Positions 5,671 through 50,061 of a DNA stretch of 64,000 nt are shown here, one piece after another. Under the pieces are notes generated by a model. The model worked only from the letters and a program-made list of their open reading frames with translations. It was not told the origin of the DNA and searched no databases. The stretch is from Escherichia coli (GTDB lineage Bacteria; Pseudomonadota; Gammaproteobacteria; Enterobacterales; Enterobacteriaceae): NCBI RefSeq assembly GCF_003334305.1, contig NZ_QOWS01000001.1, one strand, 5' to 3'. The position numbers and the translations under genes were made by a program. The stretch's first letter is position 1; every line of letters begins with the position of its first letter.

Positions 5671-7107
5671 ATGAATCGTGATTCCTTTTATCCAGCCATC
5701 GCCTGTTTTCCGCTGTTACTGATGCTGGCCGGGTGTGCACCTATGCATGAAACCCGCCAGGCGTTAAGCCAGCAAACGCCTGCTGCACAAGTTGACACCG
5801 CATTACCCACGGCGCTGAAAAATGGTTGGCCAGACAGCCAATGGTGGCTGGAGTATCACGATAATCAACTCACTTCCTTAATTAACAATGCACTACAGAA
5901 CGCACCGGATATGCAGGTGGCTGAACAGCGCATTCAGCTAGCTGAAGCCCAGGCGAAGGCAATTGCTACTCAGGATGGTCCGCAGATCGACTTTTCTGCG
6001 GATATGGAGCGGCAAAAAATGTCGGCAGAAGGCTTAATGGGGCCGTTTGCTCTGAACGATCCGGCCGCAGGTACGACCGGTCCGTGGTACACCAACGGAA
6101 CTTTTGGCTTAACGGCGGGCTGGCATCTCGATATCTGGGGAAAGAATCGGGCGGAGGTTACTGCCCGCCTGGGTACGGTTAAAGCACGGGCGGCGGAACG
6201 CGAGCAAACCCGCCAATTGCTGGCTGGCAGCGTAGCCCGCCTGTACTGGGAGTGGCAAACCCAGGCGGCGTTAAACACGGTCTTGCAGCAAATAGAAAAA
6301 GAGCAGAACACCATTATCGCGACCGATCGCCAGCTATATCAGAACGGGATTACTTCTTCAGTTGAAGGTGTGGAAACCGATATTAATGCCAGCAAAACCC
6401 GGCAGCAGCTCAACGATGTCGCGGGGAAAATGAAAATTATTGAGGCACGGTTAAGCGCACTTACAAATAACCAGACAAAGTCATTGAAGCTTAAACCGGT
6501 CGCGTTGCCGAAAGTGGCAAGCCAGCTTCCTGATGAACTGGGGTACTCCTTACTGGCCCGGCGGGCAGATTTGCAGGCGGCGCACTGGTACGTTGAGTCA
6601 TCGCTAAGCACCATTGATGCGGCAAAAGCGGCATTTTATCCTGACATCAACCTGATGGCCTTCCTGCAACAGGATGCGTTGCACTTAAGCGATCTGTTCC
6701 GTCATTCCGCGCAGCAAATGGGCGTTACGGCAGGCCTGACGCTACCCATTTTCGATAGTGGTCGTCTTAACGCCAATCTCGATATCGCAAAAGCCGAAAG
6801 CAACTTGTCTATCGCCAGCTACAACAAAGCGGTGGTTGAAGCGGTGAATGACGTGGCGCGGGCAGCCAGTCAGGTTCAGACACTTGCGGAGAAAAACCAG
6901 CATCAGGCGCAAATTGAGCGCGATGCCTTGCGTGTGGTAGGTCTTGCGCAGGCGCGCTTTAACGCGGGCATCATTGCTGGTTCCCGCGTCAGCGAAGCCA
7001 GAATCCCCGCGCTGCGTGAGCGGGCCAATGGCCTGTTATTGCAAGGGCAGTGGCTGGATGCTTCCATTCAACTCACTGGTGCGTTGGGCGGGGGTTACAA
7101 ACGCTGA
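5671..7107 (+). CDS. mdtQ: Outer-membrane efflux lipoprotein, TolC/OprM (NodT) family, apparently intact
   Basis: Lipoprotein signal peptide ending LLMLAGC (lipobox), 478 aa uninterrupted; recognised as yohG/mdtQ. Confidence 0.85.
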   Translation: MNRDSFYPAIACFPLLLMLAGCAPMHETRQALSQQTPAAQVDTALPTALKNGWPDSQWWLEYHDNQLTSLINNALQNAPDMQVAEQRIQLAEAQAKAIATQDGPQIDFSADMERQKMSAEGLMGPFALNDPAAGTTGPWYTNGTFGLTAGWHLDIWGKNRAEVTARLGTVKARAAEREQTRQLLAGSVARLYWEWQTQAALNTVLQQIEKEQNTIIATDRQLYQNGITSSVEGVETDINASKTRQQLNDVAGKMKIIEARLSALTNNQTKSLKLKPVALPKVASQLPDELGYSLLARRADLQAAHWYVESSLSTIDAAKAAFYPDINLMAFLQQDALHLSDLFRHSAQQMGVTAGLTLPIFDSGRLNANLDIAKAESNLSIASYNKAVVEAVNDVARAASQVQTLAEKNQHQAQIERDALRVVGLAQARFNAGIIAGSRVSEARIPALRERANGLLLQGQWLDASIQLTGALGGGYKR

Positions 7108-7159
7108 TGATATGCGCCTTCTATACTTAACGTTTATTCAGCGTTAAGTGGAGAACTCG

Positions 7160-7921
7160 ATGGCACAGGTTGCGATTATTACCGCCTCCGATTCGGGGAT
7201 CGGCAAAGAGTGCGCGTTATTACTGGCGCAGCAGGGGTTTGATATTGGCATTACCTGGCACTCAGATGAAGAAGGGGCAAAAGATACCGCGCGTGAGGTA
7301 GTTAGCCACGGCGTACGTGCGGAGATCGTGCAGCTGGATCTCGGTAAACTGCCAGAAGGTGCGCAGGCGCTGGAGAAACTCATTCAACGGCTGGGGCGTA
7401 TTGATGTGCTGGTGAATAATGCGGGCGCAATGACCAAAGCGCCGTTTCTTGATATGGCTTTCGATGAGTGGCGCAAGATTTTTACCGTTGATGTCGATGG
7501 TGCATTTTTATGCTCACAAATTGCGGCCCGCCAGATGGTGAAACAAGGGCAGGGCGGTCGCATCATCAACATTACGTCGGTACATGAACATACGCCGCTG
7601 CCGGATGCCAGCGCCTACACAGCCGCTAAACATGCGCTCGGTGGGTTAACCAAAGCGATGGCGCTGGAGCTGGTCAGGCATAAGATTTTGGTGAACGCAG
7701 TCGCGCCTGGGGCGATCGCCACGCCAATGAATGGCATGGATGACAGCGACGTGAAGCCCGACGCGGAGCCTTCGATTCCTCTGCGGCGTTTTGGCGCAAC
7801 GCATGAGATTGCCAGCCTGGTAGCGTGGCTGTGCTCAGAGGGCGCAAATTACACCACCGGGCAGTCGTTGATAGTGGATGGCGGCTTTATGTTGGCGAAT
7901 CCGCAGTTCAACCCAGAATAG
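7160..7921 (+). CDS. yohF: Short-chain dehydrogenase/reductase YohF
   Basis: Rossmann motif TASDSGIG and catalytic YTAAK; 253 aa. Confidence 0.88.
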   Translation: MAQVAIITASDSGIGKECALLLAQQGFDIGITWHSDEEGAKDTAREVVSHGVRAEIVQLDLGKLPEGAQALEKLIQRLGRIDVLVNNAGAMTKAPFLDMAFDEWRKIFTVDVDGAFLCSQIAARQMVKQGQGGRIINITSVHEHTPLPDASAYTAAKHALGGLTKAMALELVRHKILVNAVAPGAIATPMNGMDDSDVKPDAEPSIPLRRFGATHEIASLVAWLCSEGANYTTGQSLIVDGGFMLANPQFNPE

Positions 7922-9386: not shown

Positions 9387-9559
9387 AAAGTTCTTTGACG
9401 TTGCATTGCTGGCGTAAATGTCAGCAATGCAGCATTTCCTCACGATTCTCCTTTGACGATCGCACTTTTTGCTCGTTATGATGGCGTCGCTAGCCTCAGT
9501 AAATCCTTACTCCGGCGGTGCGCAACCCGTGCGCGTGAACCACTATCTGAATGCTCATC

Positions 9560-10492
9560 ATGCCGAAATTTCGAGTTTCTTTATTTAGCCTGGCCCTGAT
9601 GCTGGCTGTGCCTTTGGCACCGCAGGCCGTTGCGAAAACGGCAGCCGCTACCACCGCTTCACAACCGGAAATTGCCTCCGGTAGCGCGATGATTGTTGAT
9701 CTGAATACCAACAAAGTGATCTATTCGAACCACCCGGATCTGGTGCGTCCGATTGCGTCTATCAGCAAATTAATGACCGCGATGGTTGTGCTGGATGCAC
9801 GACTGCCGCTGGATGAAAAACTAAAAGTGGATATCAGCCAGACGCCGGAGATGAAAGGGGTCTATTCGCGCGTACGACTGAATAGCGAAATCAGCCGTAA
9901 AGATATGCTGTTGCTGGCGCTGATGTCTTCAGAAAACCGCGCGGCGGCAAGCCTTGCACACCATTATCCCGGTGGTTACAAAGCCTTTATTAAGGCAATG
10001 AATGCGAAAGCGAAATCGCTCGGAATGAACAACACGCGCTTTGTTGAACCTACCGGATTGTCGGTGCATAACGTTTCAACTGCCCGTGACTTAACCAAAC
10101 TGCTCATTGCCAGCAAACAATATCCGTTGATCGGGCAGTTAAGTACTACCCGGGAAGATATGGCAACCTTCTCTAACCCGACGTATACGCTGCCGTTCCG
10201 CAATACTAATCATCTGGTGTATCGCGATAACTGGAATATTCAGTTAACCAAAACCGGCTTTACCAATGCGGCGGGCCATTGTCTGGTGATGCGTACGGTT
10301 ATCAATAATAAACCGGTGGCGCTGGTAGTGATGGACGCGTTTGGCAAATATACCCATTTTGCCGATGCCAGCCGCCTGCGTACCTGGATTGAAACCGGTA
10401 AAGTGATGCCTGTGCCGGCAGCAGCGTTGAGCTATAAAAAACAAAAAGCCGCCCAAATGGCGGCGGCGGGGCAGACGGCACAGAACGATTAA
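9560..10492 (+). CDS. pbpG: D-alanyl-D-alanine endopeptidase PBP7
   Basis: Signal peptide plus SxxK active-site motif (ASISKLMTA); recognised. Confidence 0.9.
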
Positions 10493-29941: not shown

Positions 29942-30028
29942 AAATAAAAAAACCTGCTGGTGAGGCAGGTTCTTTTATTTACTATTTTCAGGCCTAACAC
30001 CACAGCCTGTGCAACATCGTGTTCCAAC
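29942..30028 (-). ncRNA. orzP: Orz-like antisense sRNA (type I antitoxin), copy proximal to yehL; approximate ends
   Basis: Minus-strand sigma70 promoter (-35 ttgcaa 30058..30063, -10 tataat = plus attata 30035..30040); intrinsic terminator 29951..29971 plus U-run; 5' end complementary to zor leader at 30175..30194. Confidence 0.55.
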
Positions 30029-30551: not shown

Positions 30552-30636
30552 AAATAAAAAAACCTGCTGGTGAGGCAGGTTCTTTTATTTACTACAGTGA
30601 CGCTAACTTGCTGATTGTGCAACATTTCGTACCAAC
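30552..30636 (-). ncRNA. orzO: Orz-like antisense sRNA (type I antitoxin), copy proximal to yehK; approximate ends
   Basis: Same architecture as copy 1: -35 ttgcaa 30666..30671, minus -10 at 30643..30648, terminator 30561..30581; 5' end complementary to leader 30785..30802. Confidence 0.55.
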
Positions 30637-35093: not shown

Positions 35094-38000
35094 TTATTCA
35101 AACAGGGCTTCAATATCGTTAATTAGCTCGCTGGCGGTGATGGCATCGAGTACGGAGAACTGCGCTTCCTGTGTTGAATTACTCCCCCAGCCATAGCTTT
35201 CCGCTTTGCCTTCCCATAACCACAGCTTGCTTAAGAGCTGCTCAGCGCTAAGTTCGGCTGGTGACATACCCACCGCAAAACCTTCGTCGATTTCCATGAT
35301 TAACGACCAGCGACCCAAAGGTTTGATCATCCATCCGATCCAGCCTCCATCCTGTGGTTCGCCCTTTATCCAGCCTTTATTCGCCAGCCCCATGACCCGA
35401 CCACTCGGGCATTTTCTGCCTGCCCAGCGGGTCAGTTCACTGGCATTGTGCTCGGCTTCTGTCAGGGCGTAGCTGTTACGGTCGAGCTGGCGGAACGGTG
35501 GTAGCAGTTCGTAGTCGGCAAAAAGCTGACCAAAGGCGGCAGCATCCGTTGGTGATATTTCCAGAACGTGAGGAGTGCCGATAGAGATATCGCCTTCCGG
35601 CAGGGTGAAAAGATCATCGTCAGCGGTGCTGTAGCTGTTATCTTCTGCTACGCGAAAGCAAGCCAGTAGCTGGTTTTCGGCGCTATAAACGCCCCAAATC
35701 AGACGGCGGGTTAAGTGGCGAACCAGCGGATGCTCAACCAGGAAGAGCTGGAAGTTTTCCGGCGACCAGCGGCGGCGCAGGCACATGGCGGATTCCAGCC
35801 TTGCTACCTGCTGGGCGGCGACGGTACGCGCATCTTTTTTCAGCAATTTGTAGCGGTTAACCGCATCGTTCGACCGCGATTCATCATCGCTTTTGTTCGG
35901 TTTGGGCAGGTCTTTCAGGCGGCTGCCGGAAACATCACGCACAAACGGTTTTAAGGTTTCATCAAAGCTGACGGTGAACTGCCGTGGGCCAAAATCCAGC
36001 AGCAGCGAACCGTTATCATCCAGACCGAGATCCGGTGCTAACCGATCTTCAAGCTCCGCCACCGTGAGTTCGCGGCTCTCGGCAATGTCGGCAATTTTTT
36101 CTTTTGCCCGCTCCTGTAATGCTTTGAATTTCAGTTTCTGGGCGATGCCGTTAAGCTGCATAAGGGCGATATCACTACCGATAGCAGCGAGAATATCCAA
36201 CCCAACGGTGGCGCGTTTATGCTGGGATTCACCAGGCCAGGCGCGTATTAATGGCGTCAGTTTGCGGGCGGTGTCATCGTTACCGAGAACGCCTAACGCA
36301 GTGAACGCCCAACTCTCTTTCGACGGCGCGCCAGCGGTCTGCCAGGCGGTAAACAGATCCCAGGCAAATCCCGCCAGTGAGTCGGCGGAACAGACGTCTT
36401 TCACCTGCAATAATCCCGGATACAGAGCCTCTTCCTGAGGGAAGCGGAGCATTTCACCGAGGTGGAGGAGGGCGCTATCTGGCAGTGATTGGGCATTTGC
36501 TTTTAATACCGGGCGCGTCCAGAGCGATGGCTGATAAAAGGCCGGAAGAGTGGGGATTTTTGTCGGGTGATTATCTAAGGGATCGAGCGCAAGCAGAGCG
36601 TTCACCGCATCGGTTACTTCCGGCTGGTTATAACGTCGGGCGATTTCTTGCAGTAATGGCTGATGACCGTTTTCGGTAAGCATACGCAAGGCAGCGCGGG
36701 CGTTATCCTGTGCTTCACCGGCTTTGCCGAGCGCCGCAGGCAGCAGGCCGGTAAGGGCATGTTCCGGGTATTTCAACAGCCAGCTACGGGCGTTTTCGCG
36801 TAGCGTTTTCAGTTTGTTGAAGGCACGGGCGACGGCAGGAGCCAGCTCACTCGCTGCGAAGTAATTCGTGATGGGCAAGGCTTCTTGTGGATAGCGTGCA
36901 AGTGAGTTTACTAACCCAGGTAACCCTTTGAGTCCAAAATGTAACATGGCGTATTCGGTATCGGTATGTGGAGATAGGGTAAGGGCATTCCATGCTTTTA
37001 CTGCTTTCTCCAGCGGCAATGTTGTCAAAATCCCCAACTGCCAATAATGCCCGGTAGGTGAATGAAACACCTTAAATTCACTTAGTAAGGTTGAATAATC
37101 TTCATTTAGCCATGCCTCAACTACCGCTTCGGGAGCTTTAATATATGTACCAGCGATCCGTCGTTGAAAACCCATCCTTGCCAACAGGTTGGTAGTACTT
37201 TCTTCATGGCTAACCGTGATGTGTTTTGAATACCAGATATATTTCGCCAAAAGTTGATTACTGATTTCTTCTGTCAGATAACAGATTGGCTCAATGCCTA
37301 ATGGCGCTAAATCCAGCACCGGAATCGGCGATTTTTTCTTTTTCGAAAGCCAGGGAGGGGAGACTACTACGGCTGGCAGTAGATCGGCGCTGGCATGGTT
37401 TGAGGGCTGTGTCAGTTGTTGCTGGCATGATTTCAGTACGGCAACTGCGGGTGTCGAGAGCCAGGGAATGACCTGTTCTGCCAGTGCTGGTTGTGAGATA
37501 AGCATTGTCATTAGCATAATGCGCCAACTGTTCTCTTCTTTTTGCCCAAGAAGTTCCGTCAGTGCCGCCATTGCTGCATGTGGGAACGCAGCGCAGGCTT
37601 TCGTCATCCGATCGTGACAGCGTTTAGTATGCCCGGCTACACGTATAAGCAGTGTTAATGCGAACGGATGATTGATATGACGCAACACATCGGCGCAGTA
37701 GTCACTTGCGGCATAGGGAGCAAATCGGGGCAGGGCTGCAACACCTTGCTCCTGTAATACGGTGGCTGACCATATCGCACCACAATAGTAATCATCAAAA
37801 ATGGCATATGGCTCGTGATATTTTTCTAATGAGGCAAGAATGTGCTCATCAGTCGCCACTATTTTTAACCACTCAAGCGAGGGTAATTTTTTTTGCCCCA
37901 GTAGACGCTGGGCAATTTCATGTGCAATTTCTGGTTTTTCGGGTAATAACAAAGCAATTAATGGTTGCCGCCATTCTGGAATATGTGGAATTGCGGCAAT

Positions 38001-38888
38001 AAGTTTTTGTGCACATTTTTGCCAGAGAGACTCTTCCGCCAGTGATAAATGTTTACGTAGGCGTAATTCAAATCTGGAATATTGCTCCAAGTAGTCAGGT
38101 GCAATGCCAGACGGCAGAATAATAATGACATTATTCGCATAATCCCATTTAATATCAATCTGTTGAAGGTGTATTATTACATCAGTAGCATATTCCAGAC
38201 CGCCTTCCTGGACGATCTGATCCATAACATCCTCACGCACTTTATATCTTGTGCATTTCATTTCAAGTGCCGTGAGTACAGCCATTACTGGTGATGGTAG
38301 CTGTGTTGTTTTCAGGCCGTCGATCTGACTGATCGCCTGGGCGACGGTGTTTTGCCATTCTAAAGAACAGGCGCTGAAGTCAAATGTGGCTGTTTTATTA
38401 TCCCGTTGCGACACACTACAGGCTAAGCGACGTAATTGGGTCAATTTGTCTGCTTGCTGAACAGGAACTCCGGGAAAGCGGCGATGACTTAACGTGGTGT
38501 GTACAACTTCGGGCGGAAAAACGACAGCAATATCTTTCGCCAGCCACGGTAAAACAGCATCTGTATTTTTGTCAGGCGCACGGGTTTCTGCTACGAAAGA
38601 GGGTTGTTCCTGAATAATGGTGGATAAGTCCGCTACCTTGAGAGAGCCCGTTACCGTTTGGGAAGGTTGCAAAGAATTATCCTTCGCTTGCTCCACATAC
38701 CCCTTCTTCACCTTCTCCGCAATCAGCTTAAGCTCCGCTTTTGCCGCTGCCGCAGCATCTGAAAAACTTTTTATCTGGCTTTGCCCTTTGGTGCCAACTT
38801 TTCCCCAACTGATATGCAACTCGTTTCCCTGTTGCTCAACTGCCCAGAATTTATGTGATTTTTCGTCCTGATAGATAAAGTGTCTCAT
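35094..38888 (-). CDS. molR: Intact MolR-family protein (1264 aa) with N-terminal WGR domain and C-terminal DUF4132 region
   Basis: N-terminus MRHFIYQDEKSHKFWAVEQQGNELHISWGKVGTKGQ is a WGR domain; uninterrupted here; 9-bp gap to yehI. Confidence 0.8.
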   Translation of the reverse strand: MRHFIYQDEKSHKFWAVEQQGNELHISWGKVGTKGQSQIKSFSDAAAAAKAELKLIAEKVKKGYVEQAKDNSLQPSQTVTGSLKVADLSTIIQEQPSFVAETRAPDKNTDAVLPWLAKDIAVVFPPEVVHTTLSHRRFPGVPVQQADKLTQLRRLACSVSQRDNKTATFDFSACSLEWQNTVAQAISQIDGLKTTQLPSPVMAVLTALEMKCTRYKVREDVMDQIVQEGGLEYATDVIIHLQQIDIKWDYANNVIIILPSGIAPDYLEQYSRFELRLRKHLSLAEESLWQKCAQKLIAAIPHIPEWRQPLIALLLPEKPEIAHEIAQRLLGQKKLPSLEWLKIVATDEHILASLEKYHEPYAIFDDYYCGAIWSATVLQEQGVAALPRFAPYAASDYCADVLRHINHPFALTLLIRVAGHTKRCHDRMTKACAAFPHAAMAALTELLGQKEENSWRIMLMTMLISQPALAEQVIPWLSTPAVAVLKSCQQQLTQPSNHASADLLPAVVVSPPWLSKKKKSPIPVLDLAPLGIEPICYLTEEISNQLLAKYIWYSKHITVSHEESTTNLLARMGFQRRIAGTYIKAPEAVVEAWLNEDYSTLLSEFKVFHSPTGHYWQLGILTTLPLEKAVKAWNALTLSPHTDTEYAMLHFGLKGLPGLVNSLARYPQEALPITNYFAASELAPAVARAFNKLKTLRENARSWLLKYPEHALTGLLPAALGKAGEAQDNARAALRMLTENGHQPLLQEIARRYNQPEVTDAVNALLALDPLDNHPTKIPTLPAFYQPSLWTRPVLKANAQSLPDSALLHLGEMLRFPQEEALYPGLLQVKDVCSADSLAGFAWDLFTAWQTAGAPSKESWAFTALGVLGNDDTARKLTPLIRAWPGESQHKRATVGLDILAAIGSDIALMQLNGIAQKLKFKALQERAKEKIADIAESRELTVAELEDRLAPDLGLDDNGSLLLDFGPRQFTVSFDETLKPFVRDVSGSRLKDLPKPNKSDDESRSNDAVNRYKLLKKDARTVAAQQVARLESAMCLRRRWSPENFQLFLVEHPLVRHLTRRLIWGVYSAENQLLACFRVAEDNSYSTADDDLFTLPEGDISIGTPHVLEISPTDAAAFGQLFADYELLPPFRQLDRNSYALTEAEHNASELTRWAGRKCPSGRVMGLANKGWIKGEPQDGGWIGWMIKPLGRWSLIMEIDEGFAVGMSPAELSAEQLLSKLWLWEGKAESYGWGSNSTQEAQFSVLDAITASELINDIEALFE

Positions 38889-41193: not shown

Positions 41194-42303
41194 ATGAACG
41201 AACAATCCCAGGCCAAATCACCAGAAGCCTTGCGCGCAATGGTCGCCGGGACACTGGCCAATTTTCAGCACCCAACCCTGAAGCATAACCTCACCACGCT
41301 GAAAGCGTTGCACCATGTCGCCTGGATGGACGACACGTTGCATGTGGAACTGGTTATGCCATTCGTCTGGCATAGCGCGTTTGAAGAGTTAAAAGAGCAA
41401 TGTAGCGCCGAACTGCTGCGTATCACCGGGGCGAAAGCTATCGACTGGAAACTGTCGCACAATATCGCCACCTTAAAACGCGTGAAGAATCAGCCGGGTA
41501 TTAATGGTGTGAAGAACATCATTGCGGTCAGCTCCGGTAAAGGCGGCGTGGGTAAATCCTCCACGGCGGTAAACCTGGCGCTGGCACTGGCGGCGGAAGG
41601 GGCGAAAGTCGGCATTCTGGACGCCGATATCTACGGCCCATCAATTCCCACCATGCTGGGCGCAGAAAATCAGCGTCCAACGTCGCCGGACGGTACCCAC
41701 ATGGCACCGATTATGTCTCATGGCCTGGCAACCAATTCAATTGGTTATCTGGTCACTGACGACAATGCGATGGTGTGGCGTGGACCGATGGCGAGCAAGG
41801 CGTTAATGCAGATGTTGCAGGAAACCTTGTGGCCGGATCTCGACTATCTGGTGCTTGATATGCCGCCAGGCACCGGTGACATTCAATTGACGCTGGCGCA
41901 AAACATTCCAGTAACTGGTGCAGTCGTGGTCACCACCCCGCAGGACATCGCGTTGATCGATGCGAAAAAAGGCATTGTGATGTTCGAGAAAGTCGAGGTT
42001 CCGGTGCTTGGTATTGTCGAGAACATGAGTGTGCATATTTGCAGTAACTGTGGTCACCATGAACCGATTTTCGGTACCGGTGGTGCTGAGAAACTGGCTG
42101 AAAAATACCACACACAGCTGCTGGGGCAGATGCCGTTACACATCTCCTTACGTGAGGATCTCGATAAAGGCACGCCAACGGTTATCAGCCGTCCGGAGAG
42201 CGAATTTACCGCTATCTACCGCCAGTTGGCTGACCGCGTTGCAGCTCAGCTCTACTGGCAGGGTGAAGTCATTCCAGGCGAGATTTCCTTCCGCGCGGTC
42301 TAA
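41194..42303 (+). CDS. mrp: Fe-S cluster carrier P-loop NTPase Mrp/ApbC
   Basis: Deviant Walker A SGKGGVGKSS and CxxC motif (CSNCGHHE); 369 aa from MNEQSQAKS. Confidence 0.92.
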   Translation: MNEQSQAKSPEALRAMVAGTLANFQHPTLKHNLTTLKALHHVAWMDDTLHVELVMPFVWHSAFEELKEQCSAELLRITGAKAIDWKLSHNIATLKRVKNQPGINGVKNIIAVSSGKGGVGKSSTAVNLALALAAEGAKVGILDADIYGPSIPTMLGAENQRPTSPDGTHMAPIMSHGLATNSIGYLVTDDNAMVWRGPMASKALMQMLQETLWPDLDYLVLDMPPGTGDIQLTLAQNIPVTGAVVVTTPQDIALIDAKKGIVMFEKVEVPVLGIVENMSVHICSNCGHHEPIFGTGGAEKLAEKYHTQLLGQMPLHISLREDLDKGTPTVISRPESEFTAIYRQLADRVAAQLYWQGEVIPGEISFRAV

Positions 42304-42332
42304 CGCCTATTAACCATTCTGGTTATTCTTCA

Positions 42333-42372
42333 TACACCGCAGAGATGTTACATTGATGCGGTGTATTAGTTT
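42333..42372 (+). terminator. Intrinsic terminator after mrp
   Basis: acaccgcagagatgttacattgatgcggtgt hairpin followed by a T-rich tract. Confidence 0.55.
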
Positions 42373-42565
42373 TTGCCGCATTAATGAACACTTATTTAAT
42401 ACTGCGAATATTCTGCGGACCTTCGTCCGAAACTCTACAAAGTCGATTGATCATACAGGCAATGCTTCATTATCATCCTTCGTGGCTGTGTAGTGGATGT
42501 ACAGCTATAGTTTGTTATGCACTCATTCTATCCAGGCATAACCTTTACTACAGGGATAACGTTCA

Positions 42566-42847
42566 ATGAATAAGTATTGGCTGTCAGGAATTATTTTTCT
42601 TGCCTATGGATTGGCTTCTCCCGCATTCTCTTCAGAGACTGCCACATTAACGATTAATGGCAGGATCAGTCCCCCAACATGCAGTATGGCTATGGTTAAT
42701 AGTCAACCACAACAGCATTGTGGTCAGTTAACGTATAATGTTGACACCCGTCATCTGTTTTCTTCGCCCGTCAAAGGTGTAACGACAGAAGTGGTTGTTG
42801 CAGGTAGCGATAGCAAACGTCGAATCGTGTTAAATCGCTACGATTAA
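42566..42847 (+). CDS. yehE: Small secreted protein YehE (DUF2574)
   Basis: 93-aa ORF with signal peptide; recognised. Confidence 0.75.
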   Translation: MNKYWLSGIIFLAYGLASPAFSSETATLTINGRISPPTCSMAMVNSQPQQHCGQLTYNVDTRHLFSSPVKGVTTEVVVAGSDSKRRIVLNRYD

Positions 42848-42877
42848 TTTGGCAACCTGATTTTAATTGCATTTAGA

Positions 42878-42920
42878 AAGCCGAAATCATTTATATAAAT
42901 GATTTCGGCTTTTTTATTGA
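42878..42920 (+). terminator. Intrinsic terminator after yehE
   Basis: aaagccgaaatcatttatataaatgatttcggctttttta: perfect hairpin plus T-run. Confidence 0.7.
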
Positions 42921-43139
42921 TATCAACAATACCATTTACATAAATCTACATTAATTGATAGATGCGATAAATAGTTAATACTCTTAAATATTTGCTGTAT
43001 TTATATTGCAATGGTTAATTTGTTTTAAATCAATAAAACAATGTGTTTACATTGCGGCAACTTTTTTGATGTGAGAAATTTGTTTCCAAGAGATACAGAC
43101 TCTTAACAACCAAAAATAAATTTTATTAAGGAACATATT

Positions 43140-43682
43140 ATGAAACGTTCAATTATTGCTGCCGCTGTCTTTTCTTCTTTTTTTATGAGCGCTGGAGTAT
43201 TTGCTGCAGACGTTGATACCGGAACATTAACTATTAAGGGGAATATTGCAGAATCTCCGTGTAAATTCGAAGCGGGTGGTGATTCAGTAAGTATTAATAT
43301 GCCGACTGTACCAACCACTGTCTTTGAAAGTAAAGCTAAATATTCTACCTATGATGATGCAGTCGGTGTAACCAGCAGCATGTTAAAAATTAGCTGCCCG
43401 AAAGAAGTTGCTGGTGTAAAACTCTCGTTGATTACCAACGATAAAATAACCGGTAACGATAAGGCGATAGCCAGTAGCAACGATACCGTGGGTTACTATC
43501 TCTATTTAGGTGATAACAGCGATGTCCTGGATGTTTCTGCACCTTTTAACATTGAGAGTTATAAAACAGCGGAAGGTCAATATGCTATTCCGTTTAAAGC
43601 AAAATACCTGAAACTGACAGATAACTCAGTGCAATCAGGTGATGTGTTATCTTCTCTGGTTATGCGTGTGGCGCAGGATTAA
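43140..43682 (+). CDS. yehD: Fimbrial major subunit (chaperone-usher Yeh fimbriae)
   Basis: Signal peptide, Cys pair, fimbrial C-terminal beta-strand; 180 aa. Confidence 0.85.
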   Translation: MKRSIIAAAVFSSFFMSAGVFAADVDTGTLTIKGNIAESPCKFEAGGDSVSINMPTVPTTVFESKAKYSTYDDAVGVTSSMLKISCPKEVAGVKLSLITNDKITGNDKAIASSNDTVGYYLYLGDNSDVLDVSAPFNIESYKTAEGQYAIPFKAKYLKLTDNSVQSGDVLSSLVMRVAQD

Positions 43683-43720
43683 TAAATAAAATTGCAAGTT
43701 TCTCCAGGTAATAAACATGG

Positions 43721-43746
43721 CCGCTATCCCCATGGCGGCTTTTTAA
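43721..43746 (+). terminator. Attenuator-type hairpin between major subunit and chaperone genes
   Basis: gccgctatccccatggcggc followed by ttttaattt. Confidence 0.55.
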
Positions 43747-43762
43747 TTTAAGAGGCATTAAG

Positions 43763-44437
43763 ATGAAAGGATTATTATCTTTACTCATTTTTTCTATGGT
43801 CCTTCCTGCACATGCCGGAATTGTTATCTACGGGACGCGCATTATTTACCCGGCAGAAAATAAAGAAGTTATGGTGCAGTTGATGAACCAGGGAAACCGT
43901 TCTTCGCTGCTGCAGGCGTGGATTGATGATGGCGATACGTCGTTACCACCAGAAAAAATTCAGGTTCCTTTCATGTTAACGCCACCAGTGGCAAAAATAG
44001 GGGCAAATTCCGGGCAGCAAGTAAAAATCAAAATTATGCCGAATAAACTGCCCACTAATAAAGAAAGCATTTTTTATCTGAATGTTCTGGATATTCCACC
44101 AAATAGTCCAGAACAAGAAGGTAAGAATGCACTGAAGTTTGCGATGCAAAACAGAATCAAATTGTTTTACCGCCCGGCGGGTATTGCTCCGGTAAATAAA
44201 GCGACCTTTAAAAAGTTACTGGTAAGTCGCAGTGGCAATGGATTGGTGATAAAAAATGACTCAGCTAATTGGGTGACGATTTCGGATGTCAAAGCTAATA
44301 ATGTCAAAGTCAATTATGAAACTATAATGATTGCCCCCTTAGAAAGTCAGAGTGTTAATGTCAAAAGTAATAATGCAAATAACTGGTATCTGACCATTAT
44401 CGATGACCACGGCAACTATATTAGTGACAAAATTTAA
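43763..44437 (+). CDS. yehC: Periplasmic fimbrial chaperone (PapD-like)
   Basis: Signal peptide plus conserved chaperone motifs (GTRIIYP, LPxDxESIFYLNV). Confidence 0.88.
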   Translation: MKGLLSLLIFSMVLPAHAGIVIYGTRIIYPAENKEVMVQLMNQGNRSSLLQAWIDDGDTSLPPEKIQVPFMLTPPVAKIGANSGQQVKIKIMPNKLPTNKESIFYLNVLDIPPNSPEQEGKNALKFAMQNRIKLFYRPAGIAPVNKATFKKLLVSRSGNGLVIKNDSANWVTISDVKANNVKVNYETIMIAPLESQSVNVKSNNANNWYLTIIDDHGNYISDKI

Positions 44438-44452
44438 TTGCAGGAGCTGCCT

Positions 44453-46933
44453 ATGTTGAGAATGACCCCACTTGCATCAGCAATCGTAGCGTTATTGCTC
44501 GGCATTGAAGCTTATGCAGCTGAAGAAACCTTTGATACCCATTTTATGATAGGTGGAATGAAAGACCAGCAGGTTGCAAATATTCGTCTTGATGATAATC
44601 AACCCTTACCGGGGCAGTATGACATCGATATTTATGTCAATAAGCAATGGCGCGGGAAATATGAGATTATTGTTAAAGACAACCCGCAAGAAACATGTTT
44701 ATCAATAGAAGTTATCAAGCGGTTAGGCATTAATAGCGATAACTTCGCCAGCGGTAAGCAATGTTTAACATTTGAGCAACTTGTTCAGGGTGGGAGCTAT
44801 ACCTGGGATATCGGGGTTTTTCGTCTCGATTTCAGTGTCCCGCAGGCCTGGGTGGAAGAACTGGAAAGTGGCTATGTTCCACCGGAAAACTGGGAGCGGG
44901 GTATTAATGCGTTTTATACCTCTTATTATGTGAGTCAGTATTACAGTGACTATAAAGCGTCGGGTAATAGTAAGAGTACATATGTACGTTTTAACAGCGG
45001 GTTAAATTTACTGGGGTGGCAACTGCATTCTGATGCCAGTTTCAGTAAAACAAATAACAATCCAGGGGTGTGGAAAAGCAATACCCTGTATCTGGAACGT
45101 GGATTTGCCCAACTTCTCGGCACGCTTCGCGTGGGTGATATGTACACATCAAGCGATATTTTTGATTCTGTTCGCTTCAGCGGTGTGCGGTTGTTTCGTG
45201 ATATGCAGATGTTGCCTAACTCGAAACAAAATTTTACGCCACGGGTGCAGGGGATTGCTCAGAGTAATGCGCTGGTAACTATTGAACAGAACGGTTTTGT
45301 GGTTTATCAGAAAGAGGTTCCTCCTGGCCCGTTCGCGATTACAGATTTGCAGTTGGCCGGTGGTGGAGCAGATCTTGATGTCAGCGTGAAAGAGGCGGAC
45401 GGCTCGGTAACCACCTATCTGGTGCCTTATGCAGCAGTGCCAAATATGCTGCAACCCGGCGTATCGAAATATGATTTTGCGGCGGGTCGTAGCCATATTG
45501 AAGGGGCGAGCAAACAAAGTGATTTTGTCCAGGCGGGTTATCAGTATGGTTTTAATAATTTATTGACGCTGTATGGTGGCTCGATGGTCGCGAATAATTA
45601 TTACGCGTTTACTTTGGGGACTGGCTGGAATACACGCATTGGTGCCATTTCCGTCGATGCCACGAAGTCGCATAGTAAACAAGACAACGGCGATGTGTTT
45701 GACGGGCAAAGTTATCAAATTGCCTACAACAAATTTGTGAGCCAAACGTCGACGCGTTTTGGTCTGGCGGCCTGGCGTTATTCATCGCGTGATTACCGGA
45801 CATTTAATGATCACGTTTGGGCAAACAATAAAGATAATTATCGCCGTGATGAAAACGATGTCTATGACATTGCCGATTATTACCAGAACGATTTTGGCCG
45901 TAAAAATAGCTTCTCTGCCAATATGAGCCAGTCATTGCCAGAAGGCTGGGGGTCTGTGTCCTTAAGTACGTTATGGCGAGATTACTGGGGGCGTAGCGGC
46001 AGCAGTAAGGATTATCAGTTGAGTTATTCCAATAACTGGCGGCGGATAAGCTATATCCTCGCGGCAAGCCAGGCGTATGACGAGAATCATCATGAAGAGA
46101 AACGTTTTAATATTTTTATATCGATTCCCTTTGATTGGGGTGATGACGTTACGACGCCTCGTCGGCAAATATATATGTCTAACTCAACGACGTTTGATGA
46201 TCAGGGGTTTGCCTCAAATAATACGGGATTATCAGGAACCGTTGGAAGCCGGGATCAGTTTAACTATGGGGTCAACCTGAGTTATCAGAATCAGGGAAAT
46301 GAAACGACAGCTGGGGCGAATTTGACCTGGAACGCGCCGGTTGCGACAGTGAATGGCAGTTATAGTCAGTCGAGTACTTATCGACAGGCTGGAGCCAGTG
46401 TTTCAGGGGGCATTGTCGCCTGGTCGGGGGGCGTTAATCTGGCGAACCGTCTTTCCGAAACGTTTGCTGTGATGAATGCGCCAGGAATTAAAGATGCTTA
46501 TGTCAATGGGCAAAAATATCGCACAACAAACCGTAATGGAGTGGTGGTATACGACGGAATGACACCTTATCGGGAAAATCACCTGATGCTGGATGTGTCG
46601 CAAAGCGATAGCGAAGCAGAATTACGTGGCAACCGGAAAATTGCCGCCCCTTATCGCGGCGCGGTTGTACTGGTTAATTTTGATACCGATCAGCGCAAGC
46701 CCTGGTTTATTAAAGCGTTAAGAGCGGATGGTCAACCATTAATGTTTGGTTATGAAGTCAATGATATCCATGGTCATAATATTGGCGTTGTCGGTCAGGG
46801 AAGCCAGTTATTTATTCGCACCAATGAAGTACCGCCATCGGTTAATGTGGCAATTGATAAGCAACAAGGACTTTCATGCACAATCACCTTCGGTAAAGAG
46901 ATTGATGAAAGTAGAAATTATATTTGCCAGTAA
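44453..46933 (+). CDS. yehB: Outer-membrane fimbrial usher
   Basis: 826-aa usher-family protein; start taken at MLRMTPLASAIVALL. Confidence 0.88.
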   Translation: MLRMTPLASAIVALLLGIEAYAAEETFDTHFMIGGMKDQQVANIRLDDNQPLPGQYDIDIYVNKQWRGKYEIIVKDNPQETCLSIEVIKRLGINSDNFASGKQCLTFEQLVQGGSYTWDIGVFRLDFSVPQAWVEELESGYVPPENWERGINAFYTSYYVSQYYSDYKASGNSKSTYVRFNSGLNLLGWQLHSDASFSKTNNNPGVWKSNTLYLERGFAQLLGTLRVGDMYTSSDIFDSVRFSGVRLFRDMQMLPNSKQNFTPRVQGIAQSNALVTIEQNGFVVYQKEVPPGPFAITDLQLAGGGADLDVSVKEADGSVTTYLVPYAAVPNMLQPGVSKYDFAAGRSHIEGASKQSDFVQAGYQYGFNNLLTLYGGSMVANNYYAFTLGTGWNTRIGAISVDATKSHSKQDNGDVFDGQSYQIAYNKFVSQTSTRFGLAAWRYSSRDYRTFNDHVWANNKDNYRRDENDVYDIADYYQNDFGRKNSFSANMSQSLPEGWGSVSLSTLWRDYWGRSGSSKDYQLSYSNNWRRISYILAASQAYDENHHEEKRFNIFISIPFDWGDDVTTPRRQIYMSNSTTFDDQGFASNNTGLSGTVGSRDQFNYGVNLSYQNQGNETTAGANLTWNAPVATVNGSYSQSSTYRQAGASVSGGIVAWSGGVNLANRLSETFAVMNAPGIKDAYVNGQKYRTTNRNGVVVYDGMTPYRENHLMLDVSQSDSEAELRGNRKIAAPYRGAVVLVNFDTDQRKPWFIKALRADGQPLMFGYEVNDIHGHNIGVVGQGSQLFIRTNEVPPSVNVAIDKQQGLSCTITFGKEIDESRNYICQ

Positions 46934-46948
46934 TAGTCAGGTGGTTCT

Positions 46949-47983
46949 ATGGAAATTCGCATAATGCTATTTATATTAATGATGATGGTTATGCCTGTGA
47001 GCTATGCGGCATGTTATAGTGAGTTATCTGTTCAGCACAACTTGGTTGTTCAGGGGGATTTTGCACTTACTCAAACACAAATGGCGACATATGAGCATAA
47101 TTTTAATGATTCGTCATGCGTAAGTACAAATACTATCACCCCTATGAGCCCGTCGGATATTATTGTTGGACTTTATAACGATACCATAAAATTAAATTTA
47201 CATTTTGAATGGACCAATAAAAACAACATCACGTTGTCAAATAATCAGACCAGTTTCACCAGTGGTTATTCAGTTACGGTGACACCTGCGGCCAGTAATG
47301 CAAAAGTGAATGTTTCTGCGGGGGGCGGCGGTTCAGTGATGATTAATGGTGTTGCGACATTATCCAGCGCTTCATCATCGACACGCGGGAGTGCCGCAGT
47401 ACAATTTCTACTGTGTTTATTAGGTGGCAAGTCATGGGATGCATGTGTAAATAGCTACAGAAATGCATTGGCACAAAATGCAGGTGTCTATTCCTTTAAT
47501 CTGACATTGTCATACAACCCGATAACCACAACCTGCAAACCGGATGATTTATTAATTACTTTAGACAGTATTCCCGTTTCACAATTACCAGCCACAGGTA
47601 ACAAAGCAACAATAAATAGTAAAAAAGAGGATATTATTCTGCGTTGTAAAAATTTATTAGGTCAACAAAATCAAACATCACGGAAAATGCAGGTGTATTT
47701 ATCAAGTTCTGACTTGTTAACCAACAGCAACACAATACTGAAAGGTGCGGAAGATAATGGCGTAGGATTTATTCTTGAAAGTAATGGTTCGCCAGTCACA
47801 CTTTTAAATATCACTAACAGCAGTAAAGGATATACAAATTTAAAGGAAGTTGCGGCGAAGTCAAAACTTACAGATACAACGGTTTCAATTCCGATAACTG
47901 CCAGTTACTACGTCTACGATACAAATAAAATTAAATCTGGCGCACTGGAGGCAACCGCATTAATCAACGTGAAATACGACTAA
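46949..47983 (+). CDS. yehA: Fimbrial tip adhesin-like subunit
   Basis: 344-aa secreted protein with fimbrial C-terminal domain; last gene of the operon. Confidence 0.8.
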   Translation: MEIRIMLFILMMMVMPVSYAACYSELSVQHNLVVQGDFALTQTQMATYEHNFNDSSCVSTNTITPMSPSDIIVGLYNDTIKLNLHFEWTNKNNITLSNNQTSFTSGYSVTVTPAASNAKVNVSAGGGGSVMINGVATLSSASSSTRGSAAVQFLLCLLGGKSWDACVNSYRNALAQNAGVYSFNLTLSYNPITTTCKPDDLLITLDSIPVSQLPATGNKATINSKKEDIILRCKNLLGQQNQTSRKMQVYLSSSDLLTNSNTILKGAEDNGVGFILESNGSPVTLLNITNSSKGYTNLKEVAAKSKLTDTTVSIPITASYYVYDTNKIKSGALEATALINVKYD

Positions 47984-48038
47984 TAACAAGCAAGACGAGC
48001 AAGTGGCTAATAATAAAAAATAACAAGGTGTCTGCATT

Positions 48039-48066
48039 TCCCCCTCATGATGAGGGGGCTTTTTTT
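48039..48066. terminator. Bidirectional intrinsic terminator between convergent yehA and rcnB
   Basis: cccctcatgatgaggggg flanked by A-run and T-run. Confidence 0.7.
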
Positions 48067-48403
48067 AGCGATGATAAAAAATCTCACCGTCGTAGGCTTT
48101 AATGATTTTACCGTCGGTGTCGCTGATCAACACGTACGCGCCACCCATATAGGTCCAGTGCGTCCCGGCATCAGGCGCGGGCAGGTTACGTAACTGCCAC
48201 TGCTTAATGTTGTACTCATCGGTGCGGTACATCTCTGGGACGGTATCGCCTGGTTTGAAATGCTTAAAGTCAGCAATGAAACTGCTTAACTCATACTTAG
48301 AAATTCCCGAGGTATTGGTCGAACCCGCGGTGGCTGGTGCGGCCCAGGCGGCACTGGTAACCAGCAAAAGCGCACCCAGCAACATCTTATTTTTAATGGT
48401 CAT
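48065..48403 (-). CDS. rcnB: Periplasmic Ni/Co homeostasis protein RcnB
   Basis: 112 aa from MTIKNKMLLGALLLVTSAAWA; recognised. Confidence 0.85.
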   Translation of the reverse strand: MTIKNKMLLGALLLVTSAAWAAPATAGSTNTSGISKYELSSFIADFKHFKPGDTVPEMYRTDEYNIKQWQLRNLPAPDAGTHWTYMGGAYVLISDTDGKIIKAYDGEIFYHR

Positions 48404-49929: not shown

Positions 49930-50061
49930 ACCAAACGACTCGGGGTGCCCTTCTGCGTGAAGGCTGAGAAATACCCGTATCACCTGATCTGGATAATGCC
50001 AGCGTAGGGAAGTCACGGACCACCAGGTCATTGCTTCTTCACGTTATGGCAGGAGCAAACT
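49930..50061 (+). promoter_or_regulatory. TPP (thiamine pyrophosphate) riboswitch / THI-box in the thiM leader
   Basis: cggggtgcccttctgcgtgaaggctgagaaatacccgtatcacctgatctggataatgccagcgtagggaa matches the THI element consensus, directly upstream of thiM. Confidence 0.85.

Follow-up and report, generated by a model that had tools for sequence, protein, structure and literature searches.

The Yeh pilus of Escherichia coli is a chaperone-usher pilus that has been placed in the gamma4 clade, beside Yhl and the Salmonella Stc pilus (PMC12778044). A transcriptome study of SlyA names the unit yehDCBA and describes it as cryptic, as a member of the H-NS regulon and as 3.6-fold up on SlyA overproduction (PMC5797941); according to Korea et al. 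2010, as cited there, the unit is repressed by H-NS and is functional in K-12 on constitutive expression. Four genes likewise constitute the complete operon in the Hultgren description, in which plasmid-expressed Yeh pili were reported and the receptor-binding domains of Yeh (PDB 9N4G) and Yhl (PDB 8V9V) were solved (PMC12778044; Tamadonfar et al., Science Advances, January 2026). That paper numbers the genes in transcription order, so the names run in reverse: its YehD is the K-12 YehA (the adhesin) and its YehA is the K-12 YehD (the major subunit). K-12 names are used throughout the following.

Positions 42566–47983 of the 64,000-nucleotide stretch of E. coli DNA analyzed here (contig NZ_QOWS01000001.1; hereafter the window) are the E. 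coli yehE-yehD-yehC-yehB-yehA locus, which encodes this already well described pilus. Compared to K-12 yehDCBA (yehABCD in UTI89), the locus, gene order and gene lengths are the same and the yehD region has ~99% DNA identity, with strain-level polymorphism only, such as a CCCC instead of a CCC loop and a U5 instead of a U4 tail in the hairpin between yehD and yehC. The locus very probably holds two units: a monocistronic yehE with its own terminator, and yehDCBA, a silenced gamma4 pilus operon whose product would bind pectin and whose pilin output would be tuned by that hairpin. Earlier publications already cover the locus and its silencing, the genes for assembly, and both the structure and the ligand of the adhesin, and the value of the analysis is corrective. 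The original prediction had described a five-gene operon yehEDCBA with an adhesin of unknown specificity and had proposed experiments; the unit is yehDCBA with yehE separate, the adhesin specificity is known (pectin), and the experiments are already in the literature.

Directly 3′ of the yehE stop codon lies an intrinsic terminator (42875–42916, + strand), composed of an 18-bp perfect hairpin and a U-run, with a folding free energy (dG) of −23.5 kcal/mol (z = −7.1; 0 of 200 shuffles fold as well). This element had been overlooked in the original prediction. A hairpin was found 3′ of the yehE stop in 10 of the 11 yehE-homologue loci that were folded, the exception being an orphan Klebsiella gene (dG −9.5). 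Among the six stems that could be aligned, from Escherichia and Citrobacter, 4 of 14 pairs carry compensatory double changes, 95% of cells are paired, and the covariation score was reached by none of 500 shuffles. An uninterrupted five-gene operon would have neither a terminator nor a promoter region between yehE and yehD, and both are present: because the AT-rich 292-bp spacer (42848–43139, + strand) sits between the two genes, after a strong yehE terminator, the fimbrial operon is read as yehDCBA, in agreement with the published unit.

Other genera also bear on the boundary. In Superficieibacter, the yehE homologue lies elsewhere on the chromosome, where it adjoins a Yeh-type operon and is transcribed divergently from it. 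In one Klebsiella genome, the homologue has no called pilus neighbour, and there is no open reading frame (ORF) of at least 300 amino acids (aa) in the 5.8 kb upstream, a stretch that may be a ribosomal RNA operon. The alternative, in which a five-gene operon starts with yehE, read-through from the yehE promoter reaches yehD and YehE is a pilus component, draws on the shared orientation and adjacency of yehE and the pilus genes in Escherichia and Citrobacter, on an N-terminus like the signal peptide and donor-strand region of a pilin, and on certain IMG records that call family members ‘type 1 fimbria pilin’. It also draws on one preprint that writes ‘yehEDCBA operon’, a name that leaves room for read-through from yehE and so counts against a strict two-unit arrangement. 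Set against the conserved terminator with its compensatory changes, the 292-bp promoter island, the published four-gene unit, the divergent Superficieibacter and solitary Klebsiella homologues, and a YehE model without a pilin fold match, the five-gene operon is improbable, and two units separated by the terminator and the promoter island are preferred.

The first unit, yehE (42566–42847, + strand), encodes a 93-aa protein labelled ‘YehE family protein’ by RefSeq, predicted to be secreted and covered over its full length by Pfam DUF2574 (1.5e-52). No NCBIfam family and no sequence relative in the PDB were found for it. A candidate promoter (TTGATC-18-TATCAT; 42447–42476, + strand) lies ~90 nt upstream of the ATG in a consensus scan, and a σS-holoenzyme peak from chromatin immunoprecipitation sequencing has been assigned to yehE (PMC4447067). 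As such, yehE would be expressed as a monocistronic message for a small secreted DUF2574 protein and would end at its own intrinsic terminator. In Rfam, no known RNA family was matched in the yeh intergenic regions, with only sub-threshold microRNA and snoRNA models falling on the palindrome of the yehE terminator.

The DUF2574 family is tiny, with 32 representatives at E ≤ 0.001 among 1.84 billion proteins, a count that includes fragments and spurious matches. Named members occur in Escherichia, Citrobacter, Klebsiella and Superficieibacter, and further DUF2574 genes were located at 7001–7273 of locus L011 and 7001–7276 of locus L010 (Klebsiella). Large multi-repeat proteins that match the YehE profile were set aside as spurious; the single protein checked, P0185, has eukaryote-like tandem repeats of the TTI1 type. 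No Salmonella YehE surfaced in the family searches, which did not include a dedicated genome-wide scan. The literature search found no publication on the DUF2574 family, and a ‘yehE’ match in PMC10642762 proved to be an author's name.

Residues 1–40 of YehE align with the N-terminus of YehD across the signal peptide and a TLTI.G.I..C donor-strand region (hhalign, 94%, E = 9e-8), and reciprocally residues 1–44 of YehD match Pfam DUF2574 (0.0014). YehE was rejected as a truncated pilin, as BLASTP against YehD gave E = 1.0 and the profile-profile match is limited to residues 1–40, with the rest unaligned. AlphaFold2 models had a predicted local distance difference test score of 60 with 13 sequences and 73 with 21 sequences, and describe a small five-stranded beta domain with residues 20–38 unstructured. 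A Foldseek search of the model against the PDB returned nothing meaningful (best E = 1.5, template modelling score <0.3) and no fold is therefore assigned. The C-terminus is invariant (R.I.L..YD) and recalls the C-terminal strand of a pilin with its penultimate tyrosine. The gene adjoins Yeh-type operons in Escherichia, Citrobacter and, at the other site and in the opposite orientation, Superficieibacter; this neighbourhood and the N-terminal resemblance make a pilus-linked role for YehE possible. The more specific proposal that YehE is a pilin-derived mini-protein acting with Yeh-type pili, as a chain terminator, an anchor or a titrator of chaperone or usher, is unlikely.

The spacer between the two units has a G+C content (GC) of 0.25, compared to 0.505 for the window and 0.425 for the operon. 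It is the only 292-bp stretch in the 64 kb with GC ≤0.30 (0.05% of positions) and the one with the lowest GC, an AT-richness of the kind expected of H-NS-silenced DNA. The strongly AT-rich region that had been predicted ahead of the pilin gene is thus real and is the minimum of the window. Its description as the region upstream of the operon holds for yehD; it fails for yehE, since the spacer lies downstream of that gene and inside the span claimed for the operon.

Table 1 of PMC3661553 lists a ‘promoter island’ of 357 bp at yehD/yehE, to which H-NS binds in two studies by chromatin immunoprecipitation on microarrays, and the paper also places it inside compositionally predicted genomic islands. 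Together with the regulon assignment of yehDCBA (PMC5797941), this existing literature agrees with the prediction of an H-NS-silenced fimbrial locus. BolA overproduction is also published as increasing yehD and yehC, and in the preprint that writes ‘yehEDCBA’ the yeh locus falls within a static extended protein occupancy domain. As published for K-12, the operon would normally be silent, with H-NS coating the promoter island (GC 25%) and the AT-rich operon, and expression of yehDCBA would be increased by overproduction of SlyA or BolA or by loss of H-NS.

Two points tell against a simple transfer of this scheme to the window. In the same preprint, loss of occupancy alone left the yeh operon uninduced, which suggests that removal of H-NS may not suffice for expression. 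Further, the published expression, H-NS and ligand data are from K-12 or UTI89 and not from the strain of the window; the regulatory DNA of the window is ~99% identical to that of K-12.

Within the spacer, a proximal block of ~145 nt upstream of yehD (42994–43139, + strand) with a probable AAGGA ribosome-binding site hardly differs between the Yeh and Yhl alleles, where the distal half of the spacer and the pilin gene have diverged. Parts of this block, TATATTGCA, TTAAATCAA.AAAACAA, TTTACATTGCGG and TGTGAGAA, are also common to Citrobacter. The invariance of the proximal half between Yeh and Yhl, and partly in Citrobacter, suggests that it holds a real promoter and 5′ untranslated region, and the block is probably the core promoter and 5′ untranslated region of yehD. 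The sole sigma-70-like site in the spacer (42955–42982) was rejected as a candidate promoter, as it falls in the non-conserved half and such sites are no commoner than in shuffles.

Downstream of yehD, the original prediction had placed a hairpin at 43721–43746 and assigned it to stoichiometric control. The hairpin exists, slightly shifted (43719–43745, + strand), as a candidate partial terminator or stabilizer of the messenger RNA (mRNA) 3′ end. Its 9-bp stem (43719–43740; GGCCGCUAU/CCCC/AUGGCGGCU, then UUUUAAUUU; dG −13.3 kcal/mol), with five G-C pairs and a CCCC loop, is followed by UUUUU. This is a stable GC-rich stem-loop, yet unremarkable when taken alone (z = −1.4), and the region contains five terminator-like motifs compared to 5.5 ± 2.7 in shuffles.

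The case for the yehD-yehC hairpin being real lies in the conservation of its position and stem and not in its fold energy. Loop and flanks vary among K-12, O157/Yhl, E. albertii and another Escherichia lineage, but all of them preserve the stem, and across the Escherichia alleles 98% of cells are paired, with one compensatory pair (G-C to A-U). A hairpin occupies this position in all 10 of the Yeh-type operons examined, and those at the same position in three Citrobacter operons and the Superficieibacter operon are unrelated in sequence. These comparisons give good support to a conserved RNA hairpin downstream of the pilin gene, and a role as an attenuator by partial termination is plausible for the allele in the window.

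Several observations weigh against that role and, in part, against the element itself. The fold is unexceptional, with 16 of 200 shuffles folding as well, and the covariation is weak, as the score obtained from the one compensatory pair was reached by 49 of 500 shuffles. The U-run (U5 in the window, U4 in K-12) is seen in the Yeh allele only and is missing from the O157/Yhl, E. albertii, Escherichia sp., Citrobacter and Superficieibacter versions. That Yhl, E. albertii and Citrobacter lack it speaks against a conserved function in classical intrinsic termination; such partial termination cannot account for that function in full, and an equally good case can be made for protection of the 3′ end of the pilin message.

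An element acting only in mRNA stability or processing, such as a stem that protects the 3′ end once an endonuclease has cut, or a stem with no function at all, and in either case neither terminator nor attenuator, would fit a stem conserved without its U-run in Yhl, E. albertii, Citrobacter and Superficieibacter, a z-score of −1.4 and motifs at the chance rate. This deserves serious consideration, even if the balance tips the other way: in the window (U5) and K-12 (U4) the stem leads into the U-run and an AAUUU tract, as befits a weak intrinsic terminator, and the retention of a hairpin at one position across unrelated sequences argues against an absence of function. No 3′-end data for the yeh operon turned up in the literature, in which no search aimed at 3′-end mapping was made.

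Intercistronic hairpins occur after the major-subunit gene in other pilus operons (e.g., papA), at the same place and with the same proposed purpose, an excess of pilin message. The Yeh-type operons differ from the pap type in that the U-run is not conserved among them. ‘Stoichiometric control’ is attached to the yehD-yehC hairpin by analogy with those operons. For the preferred tuning of yehDCBA, the hairpin probably makes the pilin message more abundant than the messages for chaperone, usher and adhesin, either by partial termination, using the U5 tail in this allele, or by shielding the 3′ end of yehD from decay.

The predicted order of pilin, chaperone, usher and adhesin was recovered by domain searches from yehD to yehA, with yehE standing outside it, and the RefSeq match, domain searches and published record agree on a cryptic Yeh chaperone-usher fimbrial locus. 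The major pilin subunit YehD (43140–43682, + strand; 180 aa; YehA in the UTI89/Hultgren naming) has a signal peptide and a Pfam Fimbrial domain (PF00419, residues 32–169, 2.6e-7). It matches the NCBIfam ‘fimbrial protein YehD’ at 1e-32, under the model cutoff, and has a weak PDB match to the type 1 fimbrial subunit 5N2B. YehC (43763–44437, + strand; 224 aa) is a PapD-like periplasmic chaperone, with PF00345 and PF02753 (PapD_N and PapD_C) found on a 100%-identical cluster representative (P0048) and matches to NCBIfam chaperone models of 1e-96 to 1e-102 (StcB-like chaperone, 1.4e-102). YehB (44453–46933, + strand; 826 aa counted from the ATG at 44453, where the ORF lister begins at a TTG at 44438) is the outer-membrane usher, with Pfam PapC_N (2.3e-33), Usher (2e-195) and PapC_C (1e-7) domains and 1755 bits on the NCBIfam usher model NF011763 (cutoff, 933). 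If assembly follows the pattern of the family, Sec would export the YehD pilins and the tip adhesin YehA, which would then be captured by YehC through donor-strand complementation and polymerized at the YehB usher by donor-strand exchange.

YehA (46949–47983, + strand; 344 aa; YehD in UTI89 naming; 686 bits on NCBIfam NF011788) is a two-domain tip adhesin. Its receptor-binding domain (residues 21–193, 47009–47527, + strand) is 100% identical to PDB 9N4G, the crystal structure of the UTI89 ‘YehD protein’, and its pilin domain (residues 184–344) matches Pfam Fimbrial (5.6e-23). In the published structure the domain folds as a beta jelly-roll that carries a hinged alpha-helical flap, and it binds pectic galactan, pectin and gut luminal fibre (PMC12778044). 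In the same study, a flap-opening mutant (W143K) bound more strongly and a fim yeh double mutant had gut colonization 1.6- to 3.9-fold below that of the fim mutant (PMC12778044). The original prediction, in which the specificity of the adhesin was unknown, is thus outdated on this point, and on the strength of the identical domain YehA in the gut lumen would bind the pectin (pectic galactan) carried by plant fibre. Expression in an hns mutant, adhesion and biofilm assays, and the structure of the YehA lectin domain, all put forward earlier as checks, have already been published; prediction of the last is superseded because a crystal structure of the identical sequence exists.

An operon terminator follows yehA (48040–48066, + strand), with an 8-bp GC stem and UUUUUUU, between the convergent yehA and rcnB and 7 nt past the rcnB stop codon. 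The U-run is present on the yehA strand only, which makes the hairpin well suited to terminate yehA and less so rcnB. In the ORF listing for 40–51 kb, five + strand ORFs lie between apbC (mrp) on one side and rcnB on the other, with metG, rcnA, rcnR, a thiamine pyrophosphate (TPP) riboswitch, thiM and thiD as further neighbours. All five are intact, as judged by lengths equal to those of K-12 MG1655.

A megablast search with 42300–48100 matched 5424 of the 5426 complete E. coli genomes searched, 5223 of them with query coverage of at least 80% and several 100% identical, and RefSeq labels the identical DNA yehE, yehD, yehC, yehB and yehA. The synteny apbC-yehE-pilin-chaperone-usher-adhesin-rcnB is shared by K-12, O157, E. 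albertii, other Escherichia and Citrobacter. The suggestion of horizontal acquisition is in keeping with the flagging of the locus by compositional methods; the common apbC-rcnB site in E. coli, E. albertii, other Escherichia and Citrobacter implies that any acquisition was ancient. Judged by this synteny, the locus is old at its position, whatever its ultimate origin.

Full-length yehA was present in 4606 of the 5426 complete genomes (~85%), a prevalence above the roughly 50% published for about 88,000 genomes (PMC12778044). The Yhl-type receptor-binding domain was present in 658 of the 5426, and ~3% lacked a full adhesin gene of either the yehA or the yhl type; as 4606 and 658 together fall under the total, the counts are consistent with Yeh and Yhl being alternative alleles at one locus. 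Yhl, of phylogroup E/O157:H7, occupies the same apbC-yehE…rcnB locus, where its four genes match those of Yeh in arrangement and length. It also shares the proximal promoter block and the post-pilin stem, lacks the U-run, and has 79% DNA identity to the window in the yehD region. The two receptor-binding domains are ~14% identical, with Yhl binding colonic mucosa and Yeh luminal pectin (PMC12778044). In the O157:H7 locus (L003, 5719–11137), the adhesin matches 8V9V (YhlD) and not 9N4G, and the usher has an internal stop. In one strain, IS1 takes the place of yehD, yehC and the yehB 5′ end (L002, 2591–3288), and in another it lies within yehD.

The usher stop, the two IS1 disruptions and the ~3% of genomes without a full adhesin gene are what could be expected if the locus were a decaying, non-functional remnant and ‘cryptic’ meant dead instead of silenced. 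Such decay is highly improbable for a locus whose genes in the window are all intact and of K-12 length, whose full-length yehA is kept in ~85% of complete genomes, and whose operon functions when expressed and has an in vivo colonization phenotype (PMC5797941; PMC12778044). A silenced, intact operon is the better description.

Salmonella Stc (stcABCD) is a related gamma4 pilus (PMC12778044), and the chaperone of the window scored 342 bits on NCBIfam StcB, below the cutoff of 500, so that YehC is not an StcB equivalog. The Salmonella stc chaperone was not among the 120 matches listed for the window chaperone. In Salmonella, stc is presumably syntenic with yehE.

Elsewhere in the window, two matches to the OrzO-P antitoxin RNA (Rfam RF02083; 99.9 and 88.8 bits) were observed on the minus strand at 29946–30021 and 30556–30629. 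They indicate a tandem zor-orz type I toxin-antitoxin pair; such a pair is not known from K-12, and the window would accordingly derive from a strain other than K-12. Upstream of metG, an intact 1264-aa ORF occupies 35094–38888 on the minus strand; syntenic products carry WGR and DUF4132 domains, and the counterpart in K-12 and O157:H7 is annotated as a pseudogene (frameshift or internal stop). A Peptidase-S11 cis-regulatory RNA motif (9475–9555, + strand, 72.8 bits) stands just ahead of the ORF at 9551–10492, and the TPP riboswitch (49931–50027, + strand, 71.2 bits) lies upstream of thiM.

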